A DNA stretch of 20,000 bases from an uncultured virus (IMG/VR IMGVR_UViG_3300025132_000024) (lineage: Duplodnaviria > Heunggongvirae > Uroviricota > Caudoviricetes): IMG/VR virus record IMGVR_UViG_3300025132_000024; one strand, written 5' to 3'. Shown here in pieces: positions 1 to 18,123 of the stretch. Numbering within the stretch: the first letter of the stretch is position 1; each line of letters begins with the position of its first letter. Both the position numbers and the translations under genes were made by a program. The notes under the pieces were generated by a model. The model did no database searches and was not told where the DNA came from. It was given only the letters and a program-made list of their open reading frames with translations.

Positions 1-3000
1 ACTAAAAATATTAGTGAAATTAATATATCACAACCCACATTTACTCTTACCATAACAAATAATAATACTGGTAATAGTATAACTGTACAACAACAGCCTA
101 ACCCGACATTATCAATTCAAACACCTGGCCCTCAAGGAGGCAGAGGATTACAAGGACCTAAAGGTGACAAAGGACTTCCTGGATCACTAGAAAGTGCTGA
201 CGGACTAATAGTTACAGGATCAGTGTTAGTTTCTGGATCTGGTACTGTAGATTTTTTATTATCTGAAGGTGGCGTAACTGGATCATTTTCTGGAGACGGA
301 TCTGGATTGACGGGTGTTATTAGTGCTTCGTATGCTGTAACCGCTTCACATGCCATAACAGCTTTAACTGCATCATTTGCATTGAATGCCGGCGGAGGTA
401 CCGGCGTTGGATTTCCATTTTCTGGATCTGCTGTCATTACCGGATCATTAGTAATATCCGGATCAGGCGACTTAACAACTACTGGAATAATAAGTGCAAG
501 TAAAGTAAAATCAGTAACAGGATCATTTGCTAGATTAGAAGGATTTTCTCCTATAAGAGTAGGAGATCAGATAACATTTGAACAAGTGTCTAGTTTTACT
601 AGCATAACTGCATCGGCTGGTATAAGTGCAAGTGGTAATATAATTGCGCCAAATTTAATACAAGATAGTAGTTCATTCAGTGCTAGGATAACTGCTAATG
701 AATTTGTCGTTGCAAAAACATTGATATCTGGATCAGGTCAAATTGCTTCTGATATAAGCGGGTCATTTACAAGTATAAGTGCATCACTTTCAGATAGAGT
801 AAGATCTAACGAACTTATAACTTCAAGAACATTAATATCCGGATCAGGTCAAATTGCTTCTGATATAAGTGGTTCGTCAACTGCTTTATCGTCATCTATT
901 GCTACAAGGATTGCAAATATAGAATCTGGCGCAACTTTAAAGTCTGGTATATTATCTGGATCTGCTCAAATAGCATCTCAAATATCTGGATCATTTACAA
1001 ATGTTAGTGAAAGTATAAGTTCTAGATTAACTATAAATAAAACCAATATAACTGATTTAACAGCAAATACTTCCTCATATGTATTAAATGCTCAAACATC
1101 ATCGATGACGGTATTTTTTGCTACTAGTGCATCATATGCTGTATCATCTTCTGTTGAAATATTGAAAGAAATATCATCTTCTCATGCTAATAGAGCTGAC
1201 TTTGCCGACGGGTTACGAGGCCAGCCATCAATTGATGTAACAGCAATAACAGCAAGTGGAGACCTAATCGTTCCTCAATATATCAAACATAAAGGCGATG
1301 TTAATACACTTATAAACTTTACTGATAATCGAATTCGATTTAAGGCAGGCGATATTGGATTCTTTGATATAGAAAAAGATGCTAGTGCTCCTTATCCTGC
1401 TACAATTAATCCCGGTGGTAATAGAATTAACTTTAGAGTTGTAGATAGAAATACTAATCTTCTTTTAAAAACTGATTCTGAAAAATTTAAGGTTAATTTA
1501 TATTATGCAGGTAATCAAAAACTTGAAACAGCAGTAGATGGTGTTAACATAACCGGTTCATTAAATATATCAGGTAGTATAACCGGCGATGGATCAGGTC
1601 TAACAAATATTCCTTCGACAGGTATAGTAGGATTAGATTTAGATAAAATTACATCTGGTACAGCAACAGCATCAATTTCAGAAACCGACGGATTTAAAGT
1701 AAACGTAAATTCTCAGATAACAGGATCTGGAGGTACAGAAAAATATGCATTAAAGGTATCTCAATCAATAAATGCATATAATGTTAATGTCGGAAATCCT
1801 ACATCAAATGCTTGGCAAACTAATTTGGAAGGGTCATTTTTTAATAATTTTACTACACAAACTGATACTTCCGAAATATTAAGATTTGTCGCAGGCATTT
1901 TAAGTGCATCAGCTCCTAATCCTTTGCCAAATACAAATATTTGGAATTCGGCAACAGCTAACTATACATTAGGTAGTACTATATCTAAAAATTCATTATT
2001 TGTAGGATCATTTGGAAGTACGACTTATGAATCAAGTGCAAAATTAAGCAAATCGTGGCAAACATCGACTTATATAAATTTAGATTTAACACAATCAATT
2101 GTAGATGTACAAAAATATTTAATATCAAAAGGCTTTTTATTAAGTTCAGAAACAGCATCGAGCGGCGAAACTGATCAGACAGGGACTAATCCATTTAATA
2201 ATAATTATGGATCAAATATACCATCGACCATAACAAGAACTAATCAATTTGGTAATTTTACTTTTAATATAGATGCAAATGCAGCTGGTAGTTCTACGGT
2301 TAAAAATAATGCAAATTATTTTGGCTTAGGTGCATTAAGTAGTGGAGGACCAAATCCTTATACAGTACTAATAAGAACAACACATTCATTTAGCGATACA
2401 GAGACTGATGATACTCCGGACGAAGATTCTAAATTTAGTACATCGTCGATTATAACATATACACAAAATTCATTTGGCACTTCCGGAGATGGATTAATAT
2501 TAGAAAAATTAGAAACTGCTCAGCCAACCGTTATTCCGGCAGCATTTCAAGATGGAGACTTTAATGGAGTTGATAGTCCAATATCTGGAAGAAAGTATAC
2601 AGGAGGAGCAACTGCAGCTGCAAATATTTCAGCTAGCGGATATTATAGAATACATGGAGTAGAAGTTGGATTGAAATCCGGCTCTCAGTCAGAGTTTACT
2701 ATAAAAACACCTAATACTGCTGCAACACAATTTTATTTATATACTGGAGATTTGCCAAGTAATATAACAACGGGTGCACCAAATGCGTCAATAAGCAATA
2801 CAAATTTGACAAGAACATCATTTTCATTTACGTCTGAATCGTTAAGTGGAGCTCCGTTTATAACAGCTACATCATATGGATTTACATTCTCTGGTCAAGT
2901 TGCAAATAGTTTTAATCCAATATATGGATATAATTCTACACCATTACAAATTACACAAAATAACGGATGGAATAGTATAGGAAGTCCAAATTTATCAAAT

Positions 3001-4002
3001 GACTCAGTAAGTGTAACATCTGCCGGAGTACAAACGGTATCTGCTACAAGAGGTGTATTATCATCAGATAAATCTGTACAGAGAACAAGTGGTAATATTC
3101 CTTTTATAAATGATATAGTATTTTGTACGGCATCATTTTCTTTTTCATTAAATAGTAGTGGCGGAAATATTTCTGAAGCAAGATCTATACCGACATATAA
3201 TTTGAATTTTACTTTAACTGGAAGAAATTGGCAAAACAGTTCACAAGGATCTACCACAAGTAATCAACCGTATTATGATTCATCTTTATTTGGAACGCCA
3301 GTAGCTAGTGGTAGTATGGGAATATTAGGAAGTGGATTAGCATCATCAACCAATACTGTTGAATATTTTCATGACGAAACACGTAGGAAGGTAATAGGAA
3401 CATCTACTACATTAACTAATGCTTGGGATTCTGATACATTATTAAATTTATCAGATTCTGGAGATTTACAAGTTAAGCCTGGATATTTAGTCGATCCAGA
3501 AAGCGCTAACGGATATTGGTATCCTGCAGATAATTACAATTCAGGACATTATAAATGGTATTTGAGAGAATTCACAACAACAGCTACAAATAATAAAGGT
3601 AGTATAACTATAGATTTATCTCCTAATTCATCTGCAGATTTAGTTGACTTTAGTAGTACGACAACAAATAAAATAGCAATAGGTATAATTTTTGAAGCAC
3701 AATTGCCTGCAAATAGTGGTGATAGTAGAACAAGAATATTTGATGCAGTTAAAGGAAATGCGTCATATGGGGGTAGCTTGGATAATCAATCAACGTCTGC
3801 ACAATTAAATCCATTTAGCGATAATATAGACATATTAGGAGACTTTGGTTCATTTTCAAATTCAAATGGAACATTAACATTAGGATTAAATAATCCAGTT
3901 AATCAAACCGTTAACGGTACATTTAAGAAAGTATATTTATTAATAAGATATAAAGGTACTCCAAGTCAAACATTAGAACAAATTAATATATCAGTAAGTT
4001 AG
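1..4002 (+). CDS. Large virion structural / fibre-like protein, 5'-partial (>1333 aa)
   Basis: Frame 1 is open from base 1 (TKNISEINISQPTF...) into the tracked 223..4002 ORF, so the true start lies upstream of the window. Contains 7 Gly-X-Y triplets (127-189), the GFPFSGSAVITGSL and GDGSGLT modules shared with the other fibres, ISGS repeats (715-1030) and a long non-repetitive beta-rich C-terminal half. Function inferred from composition and context. Confidence 0.8.
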   Translation, partial: TKNISEINISQPTFTLTITNNNTGNSITVQQQPNPTLSIQTPGPQGGRGLQGPKGDKGLPGSLESADGLIVTGSVLVSGSGTVDFLLSEGGVTGSFSGDGSGLTGVISASYAVTASHAITALTASFALNAGGGTGVGFPFSGSAVITGSLVISGSGDLTTTGIISASKVKSVTGSFARLEGFSPIRVGDQITFEQVSSFTSITASAGISASGNIIAPNLIQDSSSFSARITANEFVVAKTLISGSGQIASDISGSFTSISASLSDRVRSNELITSRTLISGSGQIASDISGSSTALSSSIATRIANIESGATLKSGILSGSAQIASQISGSFTNVSESISSRLTINKTNITDLTANTSSYVLNAQTSSMTVFFATSASYAVSSSVEILKEISSSHANRADFADGLRGQPSIDVTAITASGDLIVPQYIKHKGDVNTLINFTDNRIRFKAGDIGFFDIEKDASAPYPATINPGGNRINFRVVDRNTNLLLKTDSEKFKVNLYYAGNQKLETAVDGVNITGSLNISGSITGDGSGLTNIPSTGIVGLDLDKITSGTATASISETDGFKVNVNSQITGSGGTEKYALKVSQSINAYNVNVGNPTSNAWQTNLEGSFFNNFTTQTDTSEILRFVAGILSASAPNPLPNTNIWNSATANYTLGSTISKNSLFVGSFGSTTYESSAKLSKSWQTSTYINLDLTQSIVDVQKYLISKGFLLSSETASSGETDQTGTNPFNNNYGSNIPSTITRTNQFGNFTFNIDANAAGSSTVKNNANYFGLGALSSGGPNPYTVLIRTTHSFSDTETDDTPDEDSKFSTSSIITYTQNSFGTSGDGLILEKLETAQPTVIPAAFQDGDFNGVDSPISGRKYTGGATAAANISASGYYRIHGVEVGLKSGSQSEFTIKTPNTAATQFYLYTGDLPSNITTGAPNASISNTNLTRTSFSFTSESLSGAPFITATSYGFTFSGQVANSFNPIYGYNSTPLQITQNNGWNSIGSPNLSNDSVSVTSAGVQTVSATRGVLSSDKSVQRTSGNIPFINDIVFCTASFSFSLNSSGGNISEARSIPTYNLNFTLTGRNWQNSSQGSTTSNQPYYDSSLFGTPVASGSMGILGSGLASSTNTVEYFHDETRRKVIGTSTTLTNAWDSDTLLNLSDSGDLQVKPGYLVDPESANGYWYPADNYNSGHYKWYLREFTTTATNNKGSITIDLSPNSSADLVDFSSTTTNKIAIGIIFEAQLPANSGDSRTRIFDAVKGNASYGGSLDNQSTSAQLNPFSDNIDILGDFGSFSNSNGTLTLGLNNPVNQTVNGTFKKVYLLIRYKGTPSQTLEQINISVS
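715..1030 (+). repeat. Three intragenic ~37-41 aa repeats (LISGSGQIASDISGS..S.S...R)
   Basis: GGATCAGGTCAAATTGCTTCTGATATAAG occurs exactly at 730-758 and 841-869 (111-bp spacing). A third, diverged copy reads ILSGSAQIASQISGSF at about 949-996. Confidence 0.85.
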
Positions 4003-4935: not shown

Positions 4936-4949
4936 ATATTTATATTAAA
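4936..4949 (+). promoter_or_regulatory. Putative phage promoter motif ATATTTATATTAAA
   Basis: Intergenic, 21 nt before ATG 4971. Identical 14-mer at 18126-18139; the core ATATTTATA also occurs at 7395 and 11018. Confidence 0.55.
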
Positions 4950-4970: not shown

Positions 4971-6938
4971 ATGGCAGAATGGAAAAAGGTCATCGTCTCG
5001 GGCAGCCAGGCGGAATTAAATAGTTTAGATCTTAAAGGATCATCAGGAAATTTAGTAGTAGAAGGAAATTCTACATTAGGTAATGCTGCAACCGATTTTG
5101 CAAGAATAACTGGTTCAGCAGATATATCTGGTAGTTTAAATGTAGTTAGCTCAGCAGGTGTTTTTCGTGATAAATTATTTGTAGGCAATCGATTTGCGGG
5201 TAATGTTATTCCATCTCAATTAGGTTCAGCAACATTAACTGCAATATCATCTGGTAGTATATCTGCTTTATATTTAAAAACTAATAGCACCGTCGGTTCC
5301 ACCGGTGGTCAAATAACTTTACAAAGTGGCCAATATCAAACCAGTCCAATAATTAACCATCATACCTATAATGGAAATAATACATTTAAAGTAGAAACTT
5401 CAGGTAATATTACATCGCTAGGCGATTTGTCAATAGCAGGTAATACTACATTAGGTAATACTACAGCAGATACAACTCAGATCACAGGATCTACAGATAT
5501 ATCAGGTTCATTAAGAGTTGATGGTACATTAACAGTTACCGGAGATACATTACAAGAAGATCTTAGAACAACAGGAGTTACCAGATTAGGTAATGATATG
5601 GGTGACAAGACGGAGATTACAGGATCTCTTAATGTTACTGGATCTAGTACATTCTCTGGCGAAAATGCAAAAATAACAATTGATCCAGATTCTACCAGTG
5701 CAGTAATTGATGTCTTAGATGTAGGCGGCGGAACCCTAGAGTTAATTAAAATGAGAGATGTCGCCGGCGGTGATCAAATAAGAATAAGTAGAAGCGGCGG
5801 ACAAAATAGTTTAGAATTATTAGATAATGGTGCCAACAGTGTAAAACTTGATTCAAAAAATGATGGATTTTATTTAAATAATTTTGCAATTGGAGCAAGT
5901 TCTGCAGATGCAAGTAATACATTATCTGTAACAGGTAATGCAAAAATAACTACCAATTTAGAAGTAGATGGAAATACTACATTAGGTAATCAATCAGAAA
6001 TAGATAAAGTAGAAGTTTCGGCGTCAATGGGATTGTCTGGATCATTAGATATTAGACGTAAAAGAGATGATGGTGGCTATTTAATACATTTAGGATCGCT
6101 TGATGAAACTGCAGCACCCGGCCATTCCGGTCAAAAGACTGCAGCAATTACAATGCAGGGATTAGCAAATAATTCATCAGCTCCTCAAATTAGACTTCTA
6201 GCACATGAAAATTATGGCGGAAATGAAGCAATATTAATTAGCTCTACCGGTGGTACCAGATATGGTGTTGTTGAGATCAAATCAAATGGATCTAATGATA
6301 TTAAATTCACTGCAAATGAAGGTGGTTTTATTAATGATAAGCTTACTGTAGGACAAACTTCAATAGATTCTAGTGCAACTATATCTGCAATAGGTAATAT
6401 TAAAGCATCAACAGGTATTACAGGATCTTATTTAACCAATGATAATATATTAGTTGCGGGATCAGCAGGAGAAGTTGAATCAAGTGGTATCACTTGGGAT
6501 GGATCAACATTAGACCTAGGTGCAGGTAATATTACATCAACAGGCGATTTAACTATAGCAGATGCTAGAATAAATGGAGATTTAGTTGTAGCTGGAACAG
6601 CATCTTTTGAAAATACAGAAAACTTAAAAGTTACTGATAGATTTATATCATTAGCTTCTGGATCAACTGCTGCAGGAGATGGTGGTATTGTTATTCAGCA
6701 AGCGGCTACCGGATTAGGTGAAGTATTTGGATTTGATAATGCCAATGGTGGTAGATGGGGATTAAGAACAAGTTTTGATCCAACAGCATCATTATTTACT
6801 CCAACCGACTTTATGGTAACAACTGTGAAAGCAGCTGCAGATCCGTCTAATTCAACTGCCCCAACATATGGTGGCTCAAATGGCCATGGTAATATGCATG
6901 TTAATACATCGACAGGTGATATATTTATTTATGCATAA
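4971..6938 (+). CDS. Tail-fibre-like protein (655 aa)
   Basis: N-terminus MAEWKKVIVSGS is paralogous to that of 7489..11016. Four copies of a G(N)TTLGN...D...ITGS.DISGSL module. Ser/Gly/Thr-rich with beta-strand periodicity. Confidence 0.75.
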   Translation: MAEWKKVIVSGSQAELNSLDLKGSSGNLVVEGNSTLGNAATDFARITGSADISGSLNVVSSAGVFRDKLFVGNRFAGNVIPSQLGSATLTAISSGSISALYLKTNSTVGSTGGQITLQSGQYQTSPIINHHTYNGNNTFKVETSGNITSLGDLSIAGNTTLGNTTADTTQITGSTDISGSLRVDGTLTVTGDTLQEDLRTTGVTRLGNDMGDKTEITGSLNVTGSSTFSGENAKITIDPDSTSAVIDVLDVGGGTLELIKMRDVAGGDQIRISRSGGQNSLELLDNGANSVKLDSKNDGFYLNNFAIGASSADASNTLSVTGNAKITTNLEVDGNTTLGNQSEIDKVEVSASMGLSGSLDIRRKRDDGGYLIHLGSLDETAAPGHSGQKTAAITMQGLANNSSAPQIRLLAHENYGGNEAILISSTGGTRYGVVEIKSNGSNDIKFTANEGGFINDKLTVGQTSIDSSATISAIGNIKASTGITGSYLTNDNILVAGSAGEVESSGITWDGSTLDLGAGNITSTGDLTIADARINGDLVVAGTASFENTENLKVTDRFISLASGSTAAGDGGIVIQQAATGLGEVFGFDNANGGRWGLRTSFDPTASLFTPTDFMVTTVKAAADPSNSTAPTYGGSNGHGNMHVNTSTGDIFIYA

Positions 6939-6974
6939 TAATTGCTAATTAAAAAGTTATATAAAAAATTTATT

Positions 6975-7223
6975 ATGGGGTTTCGTTCTAAAATTAAAAC
7001 AAAAGAACAGGTAGCTAAAGAGGCGGCTCATTCGAAAGCACGTACTAAAAAGCCAACTACACTAAAAAAAGAAATAAATAAATTCGATCTAGATCGTAAT
7101 GAGATAAATTACATTTTAGGTTTGATAAAAGATACTACATTTAAAGGATCAGAAATAGAGAGACTTTACAATATAGTATACAAGTTACAATCACAATATC
7201 TAAAACAAGGAAAAGATGTTTAA
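6975..7223 (+). CDS. Small basic hypothetical protein (82 aa), possible fibre assembly factor
   Basis: In-frame ATG at 6975 preferred over the tracked TTG at 6942. Lys-rich N-terminus followed by a helical-looking NEINYILGLIKDTTFKGSEIERLYNIVYKLQ segment paralogous to the next ORF. The role is inference from position. Confidence 0.7.
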   Translation: MGFRSKIKTKEQVAKEAAHSKARTKKPTTLKKEINKFDLDRNEINYILGLIKDTTFKGSEIERLYNIVYKLQSQYLKQGKDV

Positions 7224-7377
7224 TATAAATGAATTAAGCGTTTTGCGAGGATCATTAGATGCAATAACAATTAAAGGTTCTGATGCAAAACAAATAGCAG
7301 CGTTACAAGATAAAGTAGAACAGCATATAACAAATATAAAAGCAGGTCCACCAACAAATAAATCTACAAAAAAATAA
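7216..7377 (+). CDS. Small hypothetical protein (53 aa), paralogue of 6975..7223; not in the ORF track
   Basis: MFNINELSVLRGSLDAITIKGSDAKQIAALQDKVEQHITNIKAGPPTNKSTKK. Overlaps the upstream ORF by 8 nt, fills the gap, ends in TAATAA, and shares the NE...T(F/I)KGS(E/D) pattern. Confidence 0.75.
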   Translation: MFNINELSVLRGSLDAITIKGSDAKQIAALQDKVEQHITNIKAGPPTNKSTKK

Positions 7378-7394
7378 TAAAAAATAATAGTATT

Positions 7395-7408
7395 ATATTT
7401 ATATAAAA
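7395..7408 (+). promoter_or_regulatory. Putative promoter motif ATATTTATATAAAA
   Basis: Intergenic copy of the recurring motif, immediately 5' of the structured leader at 7411. Confidence 0.55.
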
Positions 7409-7410
7409 GA

Positions 7411-7474
7411 ACGTTATAGGCCGAAAGGAAGTAGGCATATGCACGGCATAAGTGTATGTATCTAACCATAACGT
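7411..7474 (+). ncRNA. Candidate cis-regulatory three-way-junction RNA in the 5' leader of 7489..11016
   Basis: Manual pairing. P1: ACGTTAT(A)GG 7411-7420 with CCATAACGT 7466-7474. P2: CC-GAAA-GG 7421-7428. P3: TAGGCATATGCAC 7432-7444 with GTGTATGTATCTA 7452-7464 (12 of 13 pairs including G-U). No family assignment. Confidence 0.55.
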
Positions 7475-7488
7475 AAAAGGAACATAGT

Positions 7489-10400
7489 ATGCCAAACTGG
7501 AAAAAGGTCGTTGTATCGGGCAGCAATGCCGCATTTAAATCTGTATTTGTTACAAATCATGTTACAGCATCTGGCGCTGTAAGTTCAAGTAATTCATTAT
7601 TTTTTAGTTCTTCTTTATCTTCTGATACATCATTTAAAACATTAGTATATGATACCTCGACAGGTAAAATATTTCATACAGGGTCATATGCAGGCGGCGG
7701 AGGAGCATCAAGTTCTCCATTTACTGCGGCAGGCATTTCCGGATCATTTACAGAAGCATCAGAATCATTTAGTACAAGAGTAACAACATTAGAAACAAGT
7801 CCAGCCGCAGGGTTTCCGTTCGCCGGCGATGCTGTTATAACAGGTTCATTATTAATATCGGCATCCAATAATACTTCATCTTCTTTAATAGTACAAGGGT
7901 CTGGTTCGACAATATTTGAAGTTCAAGGTTCTCAAGGTCAACTATTTTCTATTACCGACGATCTTATACATTCAGTATTAGAAGTATCTGATATTTCTGG
8001 GGATACATTATTCAAAGTATCAGGATCTGGGTTAGTAGAAATACCAGTAGGAGATTTAACAGCAAGTTCTACATCTACTGCCTCATTTGGAAAATTTATA
8101 GGGGATGGGTCTGAATTAACAAATTTACCATCTTCATTCACAGCAGCCGGCATTTCGGGTTCTTTAGGAGATAATGCCGCATTAATAAGAAGTTTAACCG
8201 CTACGAGCATTTCGGGCTCATTAGGAGATAATGCTGCATTAATAAGATCTTTAACTGCTACAGGTATATCCGGTTCGTTTGCAGAAACAAGCGCAAGCTT
8301 AAGTTCAAGAGTAACCGATAATGCAGCAAATTTAAAAGCAATAACATCATCTCTTACTACAGCCGGCAGAATGGTATTTGTAGGAGCTGGAGGCACATTG
8401 ACATCCGAAGATGGATTCACATACAATGCAACCACCAATCAATTAGCAGTAGAAAATCTTATAGTAACTCATTTAACATCGTCATTTGTTACTGCATCTC
8501 GAATCACTACTTCAGGTTCAAACATATTTGGAGATGATACAACAGATACTCAAACATTAATAGGTACTACCAAGATAACAGGTAGTGCTCAAGTTACTGG
8601 TTCTACATCAATTTTAGGTGCCTTAGATGTTATAGGCAGTATAACAGCATCTAATGAAATTTTAATTGGTAGTGAATTAAATATAGGTCAAAGCCCATAC
8701 AATGGACAATATAAAGGACGTTTAAACATATTTGATTCAAATTCTAAACCTACATTTGAATTAAAACCTAACCTAAATACAGTTCAAAATACAGCAAACA
8801 TGACAATGTATGCTGGTTTAAATAACCCCCAAGTATTTTTAGTTGCAGGATCTGCTCGTTTAAATTATATAGGAGGAGGACTATCTATTGGTAATAGTAA
8901 TACCATGAATAGAACTAATACTAATACTACAGGTGATGCTAAATTATATGTTGCGGGCAATGCTCAAATATCAGGTTCAGTAAATATTTCTGGTTCAGGT
9001 GGTCTATCAGTAGAATCATCAGGTTCAACAGTATTCGAAGTAATAGGATCAGAAGGCACATTATTTACTGTTACAGATTCATTGGAAGGATCTATATTTG
9101 CAGCAAAAGATAAAACAGGTATTCCAATACTAGAAGTATTTGCAAATACTGGATCAACAGATGTTGTAGAAGTTAATCAATCAAACTTATTAGTTGATAC
9201 CGGAGATGTGATAGTTGATACTGGTAATATAAAATTATCAGGATCTTTAAATGTTACCGGATCACATATCAATGTGGCAGATAATTCAAAAATTAAATTA
9301 GGTACCGGAGGAGATTTAGAAATTTATCATGACGGCAGTAATAGTTATATAGATGAAGTAGGCACAGGAACATTATTTTATAGAGGTGGTACTCAAACAT
9401 TCCAAAATGCTGCAGGTACAAAAACAATGTTAACCTTGAATGCGGCATCATCTGTAGATTTAAGATTTAATAATTCAACAAAATTATCAACAACAAATAC
9501 TGGTATAGAAGTTACAGGCACTATATCAGGTAGTATTATAAGTGGTAGTCATGTTGGTGATGGTTCACAATTAACAGGCATATCTGCAGGAACAAATTTC
9601 ACTCAATCTTTATTTGTTTCACCATCTGGAGATAATTCTACAGCTGTAGTAGGAGATATGTCAAAACCATTTGCGACAATATTAGCAGCAACTGCTTCTG
9701 CAAATATAGGAGATACAATTATAGTATATCCAGGAACATATGAACCTACATCACAAATTATAAAAGACCATGTAAATTATTATTTCCAGCCTGGAGCAAC
9801 GGTTACGGGTTCTATAGCACTAATGGAAGGTACCTTTGATAATATTAATGTTAGAGGGTATGGTACTTTTGATGTGTGTGGAAATACAACGGGTATTAAT
9901 GTAACAGCTAATGGGCATATTGAAGTAGATAAATTTGTAATACGAGGAATTACAACTACAAATAGACAAAGGATGATCTTTAATGGATCAGGAAGCGGGC
10001 TTTTAGAATTAAAAGGTACAGGAATTGCAGAAGGTTTAGGAGCACGTGGTTCAGAACTTTTTCAATTTGGTACTGGTGATGTAATGGCAGATATTCAAGC
10101 ATTTGATAATACTGTAGCTGGAGATAGATGTATTGATGTTACTGGAGCAGGAACTAAAACTATAAATGCCTATGCTGTAAGTAAAATGGGAGATGCAGTT
10201 TATATTTCTACTGCTAACTACCCAGAGGCTATTAATCTCACAGGCCATTTTGAAACTCAAAACCAAGCTAATAAATATGGAGCATATTTATATACAGGAA
10301 ATGGAGCAGATATTAAGATAGATGCTCATATAGTAGGAGCTATATATTCTTTAAATAGTAATAATCATCTTACCCAAATCCACGGCAGTCAAGTCTGCAG

Positions 10401-11016
10401 TGCTTCCCCATTAAATAATGCAGCTGTTAGTTGTTATAATGGCGAACATTTATTAAATCAATATCTTAGATGTTCCACACCAACAGCTTATTATTTAAAT
10501 CATGTAAACGGTCAAGTGACAGTTACAGGAACAGCTCAACCAGAAGGACAATATAAAAGATTAATGGATGTTCAAAGTGGAAAATTTGTATGGCGTGGTA
10601 CTTCATTTAATCAATCTACTAGAGCTGAATCCAGTAAAATAGAAGGTACAGGTACAGTTATAATAGATTCTCCTCTTTTTCATTATGGAGCAACTTACCC
10701 ACAGAATGAATATGCCTTTCATTTAAATAGTGCAGATGCAACTTTAGAAATAAATAATAAACTTGAATATAATCATGATAAAACAGGATCAGGTGTAATA
10801 AATATTAGTTCCGGGCGTTTAGTACTAGATGGAGCTCAAATAATACACGGAGGCGGTACCGGATCATTTGCATATGCAATTAAATTAAATAACGCAGCAC
10901 ATTCTGGATCTATATTTAATAACAGCTTTACAAATTTAACACCATTTGGACCAGGATCATTTACTAACGAAATAGTAGGAGGCGGTACATTGTTTGAGTC
11001 GCACAAATTATATTAG
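7489..11016 (+). CDS. Tail fibre/tailspike with a predicted C-terminal right-handed beta-helix (pectin-lyase-like) domain (1175 aa)
   Basis: AGGA 8 nt upstream of ATG. N-terminus MPNWKKVVVSGS. ISGS shaft modules and a DNSKIKLGTGGDLEIYHDGSNSYI module of the kind seen in marine phage fibres. From about 9610, LFVSPSGDNS...KPFATILAATASANIGDTIIVYPGTY matches the usual N-cap of parallel beta-helix proteins. Confidence 0.8.
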   Translation: MPNWKKVVVSGSNAAFKSVFVTNHVTASGAVSSSNSLFFSSSLSSDTSFKTLVYDTSTGKIFHTGSYAGGGGASSSPFTAAGISGSFTEASESFSTRVTTLETSPAAGFPFAGDAVITGSLLISASNNTSSSLIVQGSGSTIFEVQGSQGQLFSITDDLIHSVLEVSDISGDTLFKVSGSGLVEIPVGDLTASSTSTASFGKFIGDGSELTNLPSSFTAAGISGSLGDNAALIRSLTATSISGSLGDNAALIRSLTATGISGSFAETSASLSSRVTDNAANLKAITSSLTTAGRMVFVGAGGTLTSEDGFTYNATTNQLAVENLIVTHLTSSFVTASRITTSGSNIFGDDTTDTQTLIGTTKITGSAQVTGSTSILGALDVIGSITASNEILIGSELNIGQSPYNGQYKGRLNIFDSNSKPTFELKPNLNTVQNTANMTMYAGLNNPQVFLVAGSARLNYIGGGLSIGNSNTMNRTNTNTTGDAKLYVAGNAQISGSVNISGSGGLSVESSGSTVFEVIGSEGTLFTVTDSLEGSIFAAKDKTGIPILEVFANTGSTDVVEVNQSNLLVDTGDVIVDTGNIKLSGSLNVTGSHINVADNSKIKLGTGGDLEIYHDGSNSYIDEVGTGTLFYRGGTQTFQNAAGTKTMLTLNAASSVDLRFNNSTKLSTTNTGIEVTGTISGSIISGSHVGDGSQLTGISAGTNFTQSLFVSPSGDNSTAVVGDMSKPFATILAATASANIGDTIIVYPGTYEPTSQIIKDHVNYYFQPGATVTGSIALMEGTFDNINVRGYGTFDVCGNTTGINVTANGHIEVDKFVIRGITTTNRQRMIFNGSGSGLLELKGTGIAEGLGARGSELFQFGTGDVMADIQAFDNTVAGDRCIDVTGAGTKTINAYAVSKMGDAVYISTANYPEAINLTGHFETQNQANKYGAYLYTGNGADIKIDAHIVGAIYSLNSNNHLTQIHGSQVCSASPLNNAAVSCYNGEHLLNQYLRCSTPTAYYLNHVNGQVTVTGTAQPEGQYKRLMDVQSGKFVWRGTSFNQSTRAESSKIEGTGTVIIDSPLFHYGATYPQNEYAFHLNSADATLEINNKLEYNHDKTGSGVINISSGRLVLDGAQIIHGGGTGSFAYAIKLNNAAHSGSIFNNSFTNLTPFGPGSFTNEIVGGGTLFESHKLY
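7720..8604 (+). repeat. 885-bp (295-codon) segment duplicated at 12153..13037, copy 1
   Basis: Colinear with no indels at offset 4433. About 33 aa differences in 295 by manual count. Contains an internal 57-bp tandem unit (ISGSLGDNAALIRSLTAT; TTAGGAGATAATGC at 8164 and 8221). Confidence 0.95.
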
Positions 11017-13886: not shown

Positions 13887-14603
13887 ATGGGTGTTAGCAG
13901 AGGTAACATAACAACAAGAATCGTTAAAGATGGGCTAATATTCAACATGGATCCAGCTAATAGAGCAAGTTATCCCCGAACTGGAACTACGGTTACAGAT
14001 ACTATAGGAAATATTACAGCTACTTTAACTGGTACAGGCGGATCTAACAATACACCTCAATGGGAAAATACAAATAGTGGGATTTTTGATTTAGATGGAA
14101 CAGATGATTATATAAATTCAAATCCTAGTACTAGTGGTTTAACAAATATATCTATTAGTTGTTGGACAAAATTTGAAAATATAAATAATAGTGATTTTCA
14201 ATATGTTGTTCATCTTTATAATACGGTTCAATCAAATTCTTGGAGAATAGGAGTAGCTATGATAAAAAGTAATTATTCTACATCTTCTGATAGATTTAAA
14301 TTATATACTATAGATGGACCTAGCTTAAATATATCAAGTTTTGTTGTATCACAGGATGTTTGGTATAATGTCGTTGTCACTCAATCAGGTACTATAAGAA
14401 AATTATATGTAGATGGGGTTTTAATAAGTACATTTACAGTTCCAGTTTTAAATTTAGGTAATATTTTTGATATTGGTAGGTTTCAAAATGATAATCATTA
14501 TCTTCCAGGAAAAATATCACTTACAAACATCTACAACCGCGCCTTATCAGCAAAAGAAGTATTACATAACTACGACGGATTACGAGGGAGGTTTGGTTTA
14601 TAA
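13887..14603 (+). CDS. LamG / concanavalin-A-like lectin domain protein, copy A (238 aa)
   Basis: DGLIFNMDPANRASYP, FDLDGTDDYI, ISISCWTK, WYNVVVT, KLYVDGV, IYNRALSAKEVLHNY: hallmark Laminin_G_3-type motifs. Confidence 0.88.
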   Translation: MGVSRGNITTRIVKDGLIFNMDPANRASYPRTGTTVTDTIGNITATLTGTGGSNNTPQWENTNSGIFDLDGTDDYINSNPSTSGLTNISISCWTKFENINNSDFQYVVHLYNTVQSNSWRIGVAMIKSNYSTSSDRFKLYTIDGPSLNISSFVVSQDVWYNVVVTQSGTIRKLYVDGVLISTFTVPVLNLGNIFDIGRFQNDNHYLPGKISLTNIYNRALSAKEVLHNYDGLRGRFGL

Positions 14604-15337
14604 TGGATTTCGGAAATATAACAACACGTATAATTAAAGACGGATTAATATTTAATATGGATCCAGCTAATAGAGCAAGTTATTCTAGAAGTGGGACTTC
14701 TGTTGTTGATACTTTAAATAGTTCAACTGGATCTTTAACAAATGGAGCATCTTTTCAATCTACATTACCTTTAAGTTTTGATTTTGATGGAGCTGATGAT
14801 GAATTAATTTTTTCAAATAATACTGCTATTAATAATTTAGGTACTTTAACTACAGATTTAACATTATCTATATGGTTTAGAAATGAAGGAGCATCTAATG
14901 TAGAACAGAGAATATTTGGTATGGCAACTAATCAAAGCTATACAGGAGGAAGATCAATTTCTGCAGTAATTTATCAAAATAATTTACAATCATATTATCG
15001 AGACAATAATGGATATAAATATAGAAATATTAGCTTTTCAGGTCAACAAAATCAATGGCTTAGTTATACAATTGTATTTCATTCAGGTGATGAAAATGCT
15101 ACTACTCAATACTTAAATAACGTAGCTTACCCCGGGATGACAGCAGGACAAGTAGGCGTAATATTCCCATCTTCATTTAATTTTGCAGATACTACAATAT
15201 ATCTAGGAAACAATTCTTCACATTCAACGCTAGCTTTAGATGGTCAAATTGGCTGTTTTCAAATGTATACAAGAGCTTTAAGTGATAATGAAAGAACACA
15301 CAACTACAATGCATTACGAGGAAGGTTTGGTTTATAA
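14603..15337 (+). CDS. LamG / ConA-like lectin domain protein, copy B (244 aa)
   Basis: TAATG overlap. DGLIFNMDPANRASY, FDFDGADD, TLSIWFR, YTRALSDNE..HNYNA. Confidence 0.87.
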   Translation: MDFGNITTRIIKDGLIFNMDPANRASYSRSGTSVVDTLNSSTGSLTNGASFQSTLPLSFDFDGADDELIFSNNTAINNLGTLTTDLTLSIWFRNEGASNVEQRIFGMATNQSYTGGRSISAVIYQNNLQSYYRDNNGYKYRNISFSGQQNQWLSYTIVFHSGDENATTQYLNNVAYPGMTAGQVGVIFPSSFNFADTTIYLGNNSSHSTLALDGQIGCFQMYTRALSDNERTHNYNALRGRFGL

Positions 15338-16014
15338 TGGGATTGGCACACGGAACAAATATAGTAAAAGATGGATTAGTATTTCAAATAGATGCTGCAA
15401 ATCCAAGATCTTATCCAGGAACAGGTACTACTGTAACGGATTTGAAGGGGTTAAGAAATGGCACTCTTAATGGAAATACTTTTCAAACTAATAATGGTGG
15501 AGTAATAGATTTTGATGGAATTGATGATAATATAACTTTTGGTACACCTCAATCAGGGGATATAATGGCATCAACAAATTCATTTACTAATTCTATATGG
15601 CTTAAAAGAACAGGTGATACTATATATTCTAATGTTATGGTAATATGGCAACAAAGAAGAAGTAATTTAGGTTATGGATATAATGGTGTTGCAGGAACTA
15701 CAACAAATAAAGCTTATTCATATGTAGGGACAAGTGCTTTAAATGGCAATGATGTAATAGCTCAAAATGTTTGGCATAATTTTGTTTTTACAATAAATGG
15801 ATCAAATGCAGCTAAGTTATATATAGATGGAGAATTAGAAAATTCAGGAACTAGAAGTGCAGAAAGTAATGTGGGACATTTATTTTATATAGGAAGATCT
15901 ATTAGTGGTAATTATGCAAACATGGAAGTAGCATGTGCCTCATATTATAACCGTGCTTTATCAGAAGGGGAAGTTAAACAAAATTATAATGCAATGAAAG
16001 CGAGATTTCAATAA
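15337..16014 (+). CDS. LamG / ConA-like lectin domain protein, copy C (225 aa)
   Basis: TAATG overlap. DGLVFQIDAANPRSYPG, DFDGIDD, FTNSIWLK, WHNFVFT, KLYIDGE, YNRALSEGEVKQNY. Confidence 0.88.
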   Translation: MGLAHGTNIVKDGLVFQIDAANPRSYPGTGTTVTDLKGLRNGTLNGNTFQTNNGGVIDFDGIDDNITFGTPQSGDIMASTNSFTNSIWLKRTGDTIYSNVMVIWQQRRSNLGYGYNGVAGTTTNKAYSYVGTSALNGNDVIAQNVWHNFVFTINGSNAAKLYIDGELENSGTRSAESNVGHLFYIGRSISGNYANMEVACASYYNRALSEGEVKQNYNAMKARFQ

Positions 16015-16712
16015 TGGCAGGATCAGTAGGTAGCATAACAACAAATATAATTAAGGATGGGCTAGTATTCAACATGGATGCTGCAAATAGGGCAAGTTAT
16101 CCTAAAACAGGTATTAAAACTTTCAATACTATAGATACTGCAGATTCGGGTAGTTTAATTAATGATGTAGCATTTAATACAAATCCTTCCACATTCGAGT
16201 TTGGCTTAGATGGTGTTGATGATTATATAGATTTTGGTCCTGATATATGTACCTCTTTAGGAAATAGTGTAACAAAATTAACAACATCAATATGGTTTAA
16301 AGCAGATGCAGGTTCAAATGATGGGATATTTGCAGCAAGGCCACCTAGTACAAATATTAGTTTAATAGGATTAAGTCTTAATAGTAGTTTAATATTTATT
16401 TGGTGTAACGGTACAAATCATTATAAATCTAAATCATTTACTGATTTTTCAAATTGGTATAATGCTACAATTGTATTTGAAGGAGGAAGTTCATTTGATT
16501 TATATTTAAATGGTGTATTACAATCTATGTCAGAAAATGGTAGCCAACAAAGTTCTATAGATTTAAGTACTAGTAATTTATATTTAGGTTTATATTTTAA
16601 TACAAGTTTTACATTTGATGGTAATATGGGACCTTTTCACATCTACAACCGCGCCTTATCAGCAAACGAAGTGTTACACAACTACAACGCATTAAAAGGA
16701 AGATTCGAATAA
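16014..16712 (+). CDS. LamG / ConA-like lectin domain protein, copy D (232 aa)
   Basis: TAATG overlap. DGLVFNMDAANRASYP, LDGVDDYIDFG, TSIWFK, WYNATIV, LYLNGV, IYNRALSANEVLHNY. Confidence 0.88.
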   Translation: MAGSVGSITTNIIKDGLVFNMDAANRASYPKTGIKTFNTIDTADSGSLINDVAFNTNPSTFEFGLDGVDDYIDFGPDICTSLGNSVTKLTTSIWFKADAGSNDGIFAARPPSTNISLIGLSLNSSLIFIWCNGTNHYKSKSFTDFSNWYNATIVFEGGSSFDLYLNGVLQSMSENGSQQSSIDLSTSNLYLGLYFNTSFTFDGNMGPFHIYNRALSANEVLHNYNALKGRFE

Positions 16713-17431
16713 TGGGAACAAGTTACTCTCCAAACATAGTAAAAGATGGATTGGTATTTCAAGTAGATGCTGCAAATCCAAGATCCTATCCTGGTAGTGG
16801 CACTACTACTAATGATTTAATAGGGCCAGCGGAAGGAACTTTAGCCGCAGGAGCAAGTTTTAATTCTATAAACTTAGGAGCATTTCAATTTGATGGAATA
16901 GATGATCAAATAAATTTTGGTTTTTCTACATCAACTAATATTGCTAATAACACAGATTTAACTATAGATGCATGGATACGATATACCAGTGATACCGGCG
17001 GAGAATCTCTATATCCCATGATTTTTACTAGAAGAAGAGCAATTCAAAATCAATCATCTCTAACTAATTATTATCTTTATTTACTCGACTCAACAACTTC
17101 TGGCGAAAGAACAATTAAATTTTTCTCATATTATACAGATGGTACTAATACTAGCGATCAACCTGTGAAAATTAACACTTGGACTCATATATCAGTAACT
17201 TGTAGATCCGGAATTAATAACGGAACCTTTATTTATAAAGATACAGAACAAGTAGCTAATTTTAGATCTGATATTCAAGGTGCATCTAATTGTACTACAA
17301 GAATAGGCGATTCTCCATTCTCAAGCAACAATTTTCCAGGTCAAATAGCTAATGTAAAATTATATAATCGTGCCTTATCAGCCGCAGAAGTCAAACAAAA
17401 TTATAATGCAACAAAAGCGAGGTTTAGATAA
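16712..17431 (+). CDS. LamG / ConA-like lectin domain protein, copy E (239 aa)
   Basis: TAATG overlap. DGLVFQVDAANPRSYPG, FDGIDDQI, TIDAWIR, WTHISVT, LYNRALSAAEVKQNY. Confidence 0.88.
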   Translation: MGTSYSPNIVKDGLVFQVDAANPRSYPGSGTTTNDLIGPAEGTLAAGASFNSINLGAFQFDGIDDQINFGFSTSTNIANNTDLTIDAWIRYTSDTGGESLYPMIFTRRRAIQNQSSLTNYYLYLLDSTTSGERTIKFFSYYTDGTNTSDQPVKINTWTHISVTCRSGINNGTFIYKDTEQVANFRSDIQGASNCTTRIGDSPFSSNNFPGQIANVKLYNRALSAAEVKQNYNATKARFR

Positions 17432-18123
17432 TGGGAGGACATGCAGCACCAAATATTGTTGAAGATGGGTTGGTATTTTATGTAGATGCTGCAAATTCAA
17501 GATCATATCCTGGGAGTGGAGCTACTGTTACAGATCTAAAGGGAAAAGAAACTGCTACATTACAAGATTCTGGCATGTTTGCTAATAACAATACAGGTGT
17601 ATTTACGTTTGATGGCGCGACTAATTATTATCAATTTGATCCACTTTCTATTAATATGTATTCAGTAAGTATTTGGTTTAATCCTTCTGTAGGATGGAAT
17701 AACACTACTTATAACAGTACTCCACTTAGTTTTGATGATTTTAAAGTTGCTGTTCATTTTGGTGATATTACCGGAAATTTTGATGCTTTATTATCCATAT
17801 GGACTAACGATAATCAAGCTAATTATTATGAAGGAGATGGTAAAACAATTGATGCTACTTGGAATCATGCAACTTTTAATTGGGAAACTAATAAATATCA
17901 AATATATTTAAATGGAGAATCTGTAACAACTAGTGCTCATTTAACTCCTAATTTAATAAACACATCATATATGGATTTTATTGGAGTAGGTAAATGGTTT
18001 AAACCTGGATCAGGTACTCCTTTTAATGGAGATATGGGGCCAATACAAATATATAACCGCACCTTATCAGCATCAGAAATCAAACAAAACTACAACGCCT
18101 TAAAAGGAAGATTTGGTTTATAA
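17431..18123 (+). CDS. LamG / ConA-like lectin domain protein, copy F (230 aa)
   Basis: TAATG overlap. DGLVFYVDAANSRSYPG, FTFDG, SVSIWFN, WNHATF, IYLNGE, IYNRTLSASEIKQNY. Confidence 0.88.
   Translation: MGGHAAPNIVEDGLVFYVDAANSRSYPGSGATVTDLKGKETATLQDSGMFANNNTGVFTFDGATNYYQFDPLSINMYSVSIWFNPSVGWNNTTYNSTPLSFDDFKVAVHFGDITGNFDALLSIWTNDNQANYYEGDGKTIDATWNHATFNWETNKYQIYLNGESVTTSAHLTPNLINTSYMDFIGVGKWFKPGSGTPFNGDMGPIQIYNRTLSASEIKQNYNALKGRFGL

Follow-up and report, generated by a model that had tools for sequence, protein, structure and literature searches.

A conserved three-way-junction RNA in the leader of the second tail-fibre gene of Immutovirus-like aquatic phages

What does the longest gap in the plus-strand gene chain of an uncultured tailed phage hold, and what may it do for the gene behind it? 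The question arises in a window of 20,000 nucleotides (nt), the whole stretch of DNA analysed here, from the uncultured Caudoviricetes virus IMGVR_UViG_3300025132_000024 of IMG/VR, where 111 nt (7378-7488) separate an open reading frame (ORF) of 53 amino acids (aa; 7216-7377) from one of 1175 aa (7489-11016). An earlier inspection of the letters without database searches, here called the sequence-only reading, had singled out in this gap a relatively GC-rich block of 64 nt and proposed that it forms a structured leader RNA. We find that this block, 7411-7474, belongs to a widespread family of three-way-junction RNAs 55-70 nt long, that members of the family serve as 5' leaders to the second tail-fibre gene (MPxWKK...) in Immutovirus-like aquatic phages, and that the family is uncatalogued, being absent from Rfam 15 and from the literature searched. 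Compensatory changes on the sense strand show that the fold is kept, and kept at the level of RNA. Its function can be read in several ways, among which that of a translational operator of the fibre gene is discussed below together with its rivals.

A three-way junction and its family

The block has a G+C content of 42%, against 34% window-wide, and begins 2 nt past the motif ATATTTATATAAAA (7395-7408), with AAAAGGAACAUAGU and the ATG at 7489 coming after it, as the sequence-only reading had described. RNAfold also reproduces the architecture proposed there (Table 1), a closing stem of 9 base pairs (P1), a hairpin capped by GAAA (P2) and a longer stem with three G-U pairs (P3), joined by AAG and A linkers, with P3 now coming out as 12 base pairs plus one C.A mismatch. 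The junction CC ends at 7467, 21 nt before the ATG, and the 3' strand of P1 ends 14 nt before it. The minimum free energy (MFE) of 7411-7474 is -17.9 kcal/mol, against -11.6 +/- 2.4 for shuffled sequences (z = -2.62; 2 of 200 shuffles equal), and this MFE register of P3 beats the family-consensus register in the window copy, which reaches -13.1. In the longer stretch 7378-7500 the same junction is retained and the z-score goes down to -1.32. The fold is better than that of shuffled controls, but the folding energy by itself is only modestly unusual, and the decisive support is comparative.

Homologues were collected by two routes. When viral contigs were searched with the first 300 residues of the downstream protein, 79 loci were obtained, 22 of which matched from residue 1. 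The proteins of 21 of these begin MPNWKK, and an element homologue lies upstream in every one of them (one is cut by the contig end); the sole MATWKK locus among the 22 has no element. Altogether, the element is present in 24 of the 79 loci, the remaining loci having matched an internal domain of the query only. The second route, a scan of viral contigs with a DNA pattern made from the junction words alone (GGAAGTRGGC, a gap, AACCRYAA), returned at least 119 stretches, 80 of them with flanks. Within 8-20 nt of the pattern end, 62 of the 80 have ATG-SCN-NNN-TGG-AAR-AA; 3 more are genuine elements whose downstream start is a variant or a different one, and about 15 are chance matches in G+C-rich DNA. 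The viral contigs hold at least 103 distinct copies, to which one from a cultured phage is additional.

After removal of duplicates, 98 distinct copies were aligned and tested against 500 column shuffles and against pairing partners slid along the alignment. Standard pairs make up 92.6% of the cells, as opposed to 81.0% after shuffling, and the covariation score is 0.358, as opposed to 0.145; none of the 500 shuffles was as high in either measure, and the score falls to 0.03-0.11 when partners are slid by 1-3 columns. All three stems covary. In P1, pair 7-83 is A-U in 68 sequences and G-C in 30 and is never unpaired, while pair 8-82 is U-A in 50 and U.G in 47; in P2, pair 14-37 is C-G in 44 and U-A in 29; and in P3, pair 44-77 is G-C in 73 and A-U in 25, the window having the A-U variant, and is likewise never unpaired. 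Pair 48-71 occurs as five pair types, and the G.U pair at columns 46-73 is invariant (98/98). Since such invariant or frequent G.U pairs would be C.A mismatches on the opposite strand, the structure is read on the sense RNA. The argument of the sequence-only reading that G-U pairs speak for RNA rather than DNA structure is borne out by columns 46-73 and 8-82, and the conserved junction sequence and covariation that it proposed to look for in homologous leaders are both present.

The near-invariant residues surround the junction (GG/CC, CC/GG, AAG, U-R-G/C-Y-A and A), and the window copy has all of them. For the loci found with the DNA pattern (L080 onward in our numbering) letters such as AAG were pre-set by the search, but the AAG strand is retained also in the loci found via the protein. 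A recount free of the pattern, limited to the protein-found copies (26 matches, 21 distinct), gives 94.1% paired, a covariation score of 0.433 against 0.186, and 10 pairs altered on both sides, and RNAalifold predicts the same junction unprompted. A covariance model built from the family, R1, finds one copy in the window at 60.1 bits, a match that is by construction because the window copy is in the seed; the next best match there reaches 8.8 bits.

A cultured example was recovered by tblastn with the first 100 aa of the downstream protein at a loose threshold, which led to Flavobacterium phage vB_FspM_immuto, represented by three strains in four records. Its copy, which is outside the seed, scores 54.8 bits with R1 at NC_055915.1:137890-137948, directly upstream of gp052, annotated as 'putative tail fiber-like protein', and is the only R1 match in the 160-kb genome; in it, the otherwise invariant G-C pair 11-80 is changed to A-U. 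The element is present once per genome, with one copy in the window and one in immuto. Against cultured phages, blastn with the region and with a homologous element gave no match or short spurious ones, and tblastn with 300 aa gave none at 1e-3. A pattern scan of 185,579 prokaryote genomes returned 3 matches, all of them on contigs of metagenome-assembled genomes (MAGs) labelled with three different taxa, and these provide nothing reliable on hosts. In three runs of seawater metatranscriptomes, relatives of the locus appear as contigs with small shares (0.06-0.08), and one RNA-library contig of a relative spans at least 7405 to 7629, from the element into the gene, with a change, A7470G, that keeps its P1 pair (as U.G). 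In an RNA-library contig of a relative, 99 nt of the fibre gene (window 7707-7807) are swapped for 15 other letters, a length polymorphism in a part of the fibre that starts with a glycine-rich run.

No known RNA family accounts for the element. Permissive scans of 7000-7900, 7395-7500 and 18 homologous loci against Rfam 15 placed nothing on it at E <= 10, the best score, 16.7 bits, being that of gltS, whose gathering score is 47.5, and no covariance-model match to the c-di-GMP-II riboswitch (RF01786) was found in these stretches. Full-text literature searches, supplements aside, gave no description of the fibre-leader RNA. The candidate motifs that Rfam lists as cis-regulatory upstream of phage structural genes are alike in placing a conserved structured RNA ahead of one virion gene, but differ in that no Rfam 15 family reaches E <= 10 here.

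Specific classes were rejected as well. An intrinsic terminator is ruled out by the lack of a U-tract, AAAAGGAAC following the element, and by a scan for terminator-like sites that has none at 7378-7488; a hammerhead ribozyme by the absence of CUGA from 7411-7474, by junction strands of 0-1, 3 and 1 nt, and by the absence of an Rfam match; and a tRNA or tmRNA by ARAGORN, which finds 0 genes in the window. On terminators, and on known riboswitches and ribozymes, the sequence-only reading had come to the same view. As a side observation, weak Rfam leader-peptide matches (E = 0.15-1.9) occur in one homologous locus (L101, 493-592, minus strand), off the element, on a hairpin with a U-tract that shortly precedes the promoter-like box and the element and looks like the terminator of the unit before.

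Subtypes, start codon and promoter-like box

The copies, counted here as 104 with three MAG loci included, fall into three subtypes. In the largest, min (56 copies), P2 and P3 are short and their loops varied (GNRA, UUCG and others). Subtype A (19 copies, that of the window among them) has a long P3, in which the loop GGCAU(A/U)A is kept and the apical stem covaries (CAC/GUG, CAU/AUG, CACU/AGUG). In subtype B (29 copies) it is P2 that is long, carrying loops like GUGGCA or UUUGGCG. Across homologues, P2 measures 2-10 base pairs.

All subtypes share a tight link to one gene start. ATG-CCN-NNN-TGG, coding for the beginning of MPxWKK, follows 101 of the 103 listed copies, with the AUG 12-24 nt past the junction CC, as in the window. 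The longer the arms, the wider this spacing, with values mostly of 14-18 nt for min, 17-18 nt for B and 19-24 nt for A. In the remaining 2 copies, a homing-endonuclease-like gene is inserted directly behind the leader, and the conserved junction between leader and gene start looks like a homing target. One of the two (L084:149-389, minus strand) is an HNH endonuclease at 22.5 bits, above the Pfam cut-off, and opens with the first three codons of the fibre gene; the other (L145:2-388, minus strand) is a GIY-YIG-like ORF with E = 2e-4, below the cut-off.

The extended arms of subtypes A and B carry loops complementary to the start region. In the window, GGCAUA (7445-7450) can form six contiguous pairs with UAUGCC (7488-7493), with a duplex energy of -8.9 kcal/mol. 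The P3 loop has 5-8 contiguous complementary positions including AUG in all 19 subtype A copies, landing on -1..+5. In subtype B it is the P2 loop, which in 27 of the 29 copies has 5-7 starting at +2 and lands on +2..+6/7. When loops are shuffled, 21-25% of trials reach at least 5 pairs. Within the proposed helices the positions are fixed, and outside them they vary: position -1 is U in 18 of 19 subtype A copies, and all 29 copies of subtype B have A at +6, where subtype A has A 14, C 3 and G 2. From this complementarity we infer that the loops may pair with the start region.

A separate bias affects codon 2 of the fibre gene (window 7492-7494), which is CCA in 84, CCG in 11, CCC in 4 and CCT in 2 of 101 genes, so that CCA and CCG make up 95/101 there against 180/336 among later proline codons (CCA 167, CCT 126, or 37%, CCC 30, CCG 13). 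The bias is real, and the proposed helices do not account for it.

The subtypes further differ in their Shine-Dalgarno (SD) signals and in what lies before the element. Within -16..-4, an SD-like word is seen in 28 of the 29 copies of subtype B, and less often in subtype A (7 of 19) and in min (13 of 56); in subtype B it takes the form GGAG in 27 of 29, the 3' strand of P1 covers its first two G, and the stop codon of the upstream ORF lies inside the 5' strand of P1. With the stop codon in P1 and P1 over GGAG, translation of the upstream ORF would melt P1 and free the SD.

Ahead of the element in the window stands a promoter-like box, so that the element lies between this box and the start of the fibre-like gene, an arrangement already noticed in the sequence-only reading. 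A box of the form T[AG]TTTAT[ATC], with the logo (A/C)TATTTAT(A/T), is found in 69 of the 77 subtype A and min copies; subtype B lacks it altogether (0 of 29). For most of the 69 carriers, the distance from the end of the box is 10-18 nt to the junction GG and 1-9 nt to P1. The box recurs in immuto and, as ATATTTATA, in the window upstream of ORF starts at 4936, 11018 and 18126, with one more plus-strand copy inside an ORF. These occurrences suggest that it is a phage promoter, which would place the element at the 5' end of the mRNA. A scan for sigma-70 promoters was uninformative (109 sites against 108.9 expected). As ATATTTAT(A/T), the box precedes ORF starts by 4-36 nt in the window (4936, 7395, 11018 and 18126, plus strand) and in one homologous locus (L199: 4245, 5924 and 10507); two of these sites are only 4 nt from the ATG, implying leaderless transcripts if the box is a promoter.

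What the leader may do

We give an even chance to the reading, built on the sequence comparisons above, that the element is a cis-acting translational operator of the fibre gene that works with a trans-acting factor. Transcription would start from the ATATTTATA box, leaving P1 at or near the 5' end of the mRNA, and the element would act in cis on translation initiation of the fibre gene. Its invariant junction (GG/CC, CC/GG, AAG, U-R-G/C-Y-A and A) would be the docking site for a phage protein or the ribosome; in subtype A, once the junction is folded, the P3 loop GGCAUA would pair with UAUGCC and hide the start codon. The outcome would be a repressible operator setting the amount or timing of fibre synthesis, through an effect that may have either sign (repression or activation), with the anti-start loops and the overlaps with SD and stop codon as lineage-specific additions. 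It is the complementarity of GGCAUA to UAUGCC that favours control at translation, and a junction made mostly of G-C pairs, with only AAG and A unpaired, would suit binding by a protein or the ribosome more than the pocket of a small molecule.

Comparable arrangements are known. The T4 gene 32 pseudoknot, the gene 43 hairpin, the RegA sites and the MS2 replicase operator are phage translational operators, and the fibre leader resembles them as a structured phage mRNA leader next to or over the start codon of one gene, with a factor proposed here; it differs in having no similarity to them in sequence or fold, in being a three-way junction with an invariant core, and in that its operator role is putative. 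In E. coli, rpsO (with its S15 pseudoknot) and thrS (with its mimic of an anticodon arm) have operators that trap the start site. The likeness to these lies in a fold just upstream that would hold the initiation region, and in the 7-nt loop GGCAUAA of subtype A, which contains CAU, the complement of AUG; the similarity is one of topology only, and ARAGORN finds no tRNA-like gene here.

Several points weigh against an operator of this kind. The loops of the 56 min copies are short and varied and their complementarity to the start is at chance level, with best runs of 2-5 pairs, so that start-codon pairing cannot be the mechanism of the whole family. Subtypes A and B probably represent one or two evolutionary events each, and with so few origins the complementarity argument comes down to about 2-3 independent cases, at a chance rate of about 0.2 apiece. 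Loop variants GGCAUUA occur without covariation with position -1, and a short spacing to the AUG is expected of any upstream element in a compact phage genome. The trans factor lacks a candidate: the sequence-only reading had suggested, as a ligand, the small basic protein encoded upstream, but the neighbouring 53-aa ORF has homologues in only 11 of 22 loci and the upstream ORF of subtype B is a different one. Finally, the metatranscriptome contigs of relatives cannot give start, end, strand or level of a transcript, and DNA carry-over into these libraries is possible.

The alternative that survives best, although we consider it rather improbable, is that of a stability element, which by analogy would block nucleases at the 5' end of the late transcript and shield the long mRNA of the fibre operon from 5'-end-dependent decay, in the way that 5'-terminal stem-loops stabilise E. 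coli mRNAs. The position of the box, 1-9 nt before P1 in most of the 69 carriers, would put P1 close to the start of the transcript, and the topology recalls that of flavivirus exoribonuclease-resistant RNAs (xrRNAs), three-way junctions in which a hairpin loop pairs downstream of the closing stem, as is predicted here. However, no Rfam xrRNA family matches the element, and we identified no 5' pseudoknot in it; the box is absent from all 29 subtype B copies, where the element comes right after the stop of an upstream ORF and would lie within a polycistronic RNA; and a plain protective stem has no need of an invariant junction across such diverged phages.

Somewhat less probable still is a reading in which the junction is itself a sensor or docking module of a new class, either a small-molecule aptamer or a ribosome-binding structure replacing the SD helix, which would gate fibre synthesis. 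Individual phage lineages would have added anti-start loops to it, on P3 in the window and on P2 elsewhere, making the switch sharper. Bacteroidota hosts make little use of SD pairing.

That the leader is a riboswitch, in which a small molecule or ion would bind the junction and the stability of P1 would gate the access of the ribosome, we regard as unlikely. Size and shape are like those of small junction aptamers, and P1 lies within the 30S footprint. When the leader is folded together with 25 nt of the ORF, the junction is kept in the MFE structure of only 47 of 104 copies, with alternatives within a median of 0-0.5 kcal/mol, and as the two are near-equal in energy a two-state equilibrium is energetically possible. 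In the commonest alternative, UUGGC in P1 pairs with GCCAA around the start (13 of the 37 non-junction MFE structures of the min group). This helix was rejected as a conserved feature, since the bulge base and +6 show no covariation: where the bulge is A, +6 nevertheless stays A in 12 of 14 min copies. Against a riboswitch speak the only four or five unpaired nucleotides of the junction (AAG, A and a variable bulge), the conserved positions being mostly base pairs, the lack of a match to any Rfam riboswitch, and a tail-fibre context with no obvious ligand.

A known system close to the element is the Glutamine-I riboswitch (glnA RNA, RF01739), which has an E-loop in P1, forms a long-range pair induced by the ligand and binds glutamine. 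Like the element, it joins three stems in about 60 nt, is found in marine microbes and their phages, and has a purine-rich junction word similar to GGAAGU; but its gene context is different and, with a gathering score of 35 bits, it has no match at E <= 10 on the window element, on the 18 loci or in the immuto genome. Glutamine riboswitches in pelagiphage-like genomes of other marine phages are the subject of PMC9004378.

Very unlikely, in our view, is a processive antiterminator similar by analogy to the put RNA of phage HK022, which would provide read-through of the fibre and lectin operon. The element does stand directly behind the promoter-like box, ahead of at least 12.5 kb of co-oriented genes, but its strict tie to the start codon of one gene, the loops complementary to that codon, and the absence of the box in subtype B do not fit, and a general terminator scan, the only one made, shows nothing that stands out (5 found against 6.9 expected). 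Slightly less credible again is a self-cleaving ribozyme or RNase processing site that would define the 5' end of the fibre mRNA: some of the small, conserved junction RNAs that lie between phage genes are ribozymes, and in subtype B the element is found at a cistron boundary, but it has no hammerhead core, no Rfam ribozyme match and very few conserved unpaired nucleotides, and the RNA-library contig of the relative runs unbroken across it (7405-7629), a weak point given possible DNA carry-over. A feature of the DNA or of chance, such as a recombination hot spot, homing target or fortuitous palindrome, can practically be dismissed, as compensatory changes and strand-specific G.U pairs are inexplicable on DNA and at least 103 distinct copies rule out chance, even though two homing-endonuclease-like genes have used the leader and gene start as an insertion point.

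Few structured cis-regulators are known for phage virion genes, and outside T4, MS2 and lambda hardly any is understood. The fibre-leader RNA is abundant (at least 103 distinct copies), better conserved than the proteins surrounding it, and linked to just one gene, at the joint between the parts of a composite tail fibre. Because a cultured pair, Flavobacterium phage immuto and Flavobacterium sp. LMO8, carries it, its function is directly testable. As a translational switch, if it is one, it would show how the fibre segments of large aquatic phages are balanced or timed in SD-poor hosts, and the RNA repertoire would gain a compact new junction fold; at minimum, it is an annotation marker for the fibre gene in uncultured phage genomes and merits an Rfam entry.

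The fibre genes and their neighbourhood

The features of the locus are collected in Table 1. The 1175-aa protein has no match in Pfam or PHROG, and its sole named relative is a 'putative tail fiber-like protein'; the label tailspike, used in the sequence-only reading, is unverified. Gene order was compared in the 22 loci with enough upstream DNA, to which the phmmer counts of Table 1 also refer. As a rule, fibre 1 (MAxWKKV...GDIFIYA) comes first, followed by one or two small ORFs, then the RNA and fibre 2 (MPxWKK). The fibre 1 genes (MAxWKK) of the loci compared never have the element; that of the window has the same promoter-like box and a plain leader of 26 nt.

Table 1. Features of the fibre locus, with positions in the window
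Feature	Position	Strand	Remarks
Fibre 1, MAEWKKV...	4971-6938	+	Conserved upstream neighbour
93-aa ORF	6942-7223	+	Homologues in 13/22 loci (phmmer)
53-aa ORF	7216-7377	+	Homologues adjoin the element in 11/22 loci (phmmer)
Promoter-like box ATATTTATA(TAAAA)	7395-7408	+	Box ends 7 nt before P1
P1, 5' strand	7411-7417 and 7419-7420, A7418 bulged	+	Pairs over 9 bp with 7468-7474 and 7466-7467 (RNAfold)
P2, 2-bp hairpin CC-GAAA-GG	7421-7428	+	RNAfold
J2/3, junction strand AAG, invariant	7429-7431	+	Invariant columns of the alignment
P3	7432-7464	+	Base UAG/CUA, long stem; 12 bp, one C.A mismatch, three G.U pairs
P3 apical loop GGCAUAA	7445-7451	+	Extended arm typical of subtype A
Junction A; P1, 3' strand, CC and AUAACGU	7465; 7466-7467 and 7468-7474	+	RNAfold, alignment
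14-nt spacer AAAAGGAACAUAGU	7475-7488	+	Weak Shine-Dalgarno-like AGGA at 7478-7481
Start-codon region UAUGCC	7488-7493	+	Complementary to loop 7445-7450; candidate pseudoknot
Fibre-like gene (fibre 2), 1175 aa, MPNWKKVVVSGS...	7489-11016	+	ORF served by the leader

The two fibre proteins of the window (4971-6938 and 7489-11016) have a common N-terminal peptide, M(A/P)xWKKV(I/V)VSGS, and fibre 1 proteins have a C-terminal end, ...GDI(F/W)IY(A/V/S), that is conserved across loci. At the start of the window, an open frame of at least 1333 aa (1-4002) runs off the edge and has no match in Pfam or PHROG. Downstream of the fibre genes, at 13887-18123, lie six tandem paralogous genes of 225-244 aa, all of which match PHROG 'virion structural protein' families; the one that was scanned against Pfam has a lectin-like concanavalin/Laminin_G_3 domain (PF13385, E = 2e-19), and we read the six as a lectin array.

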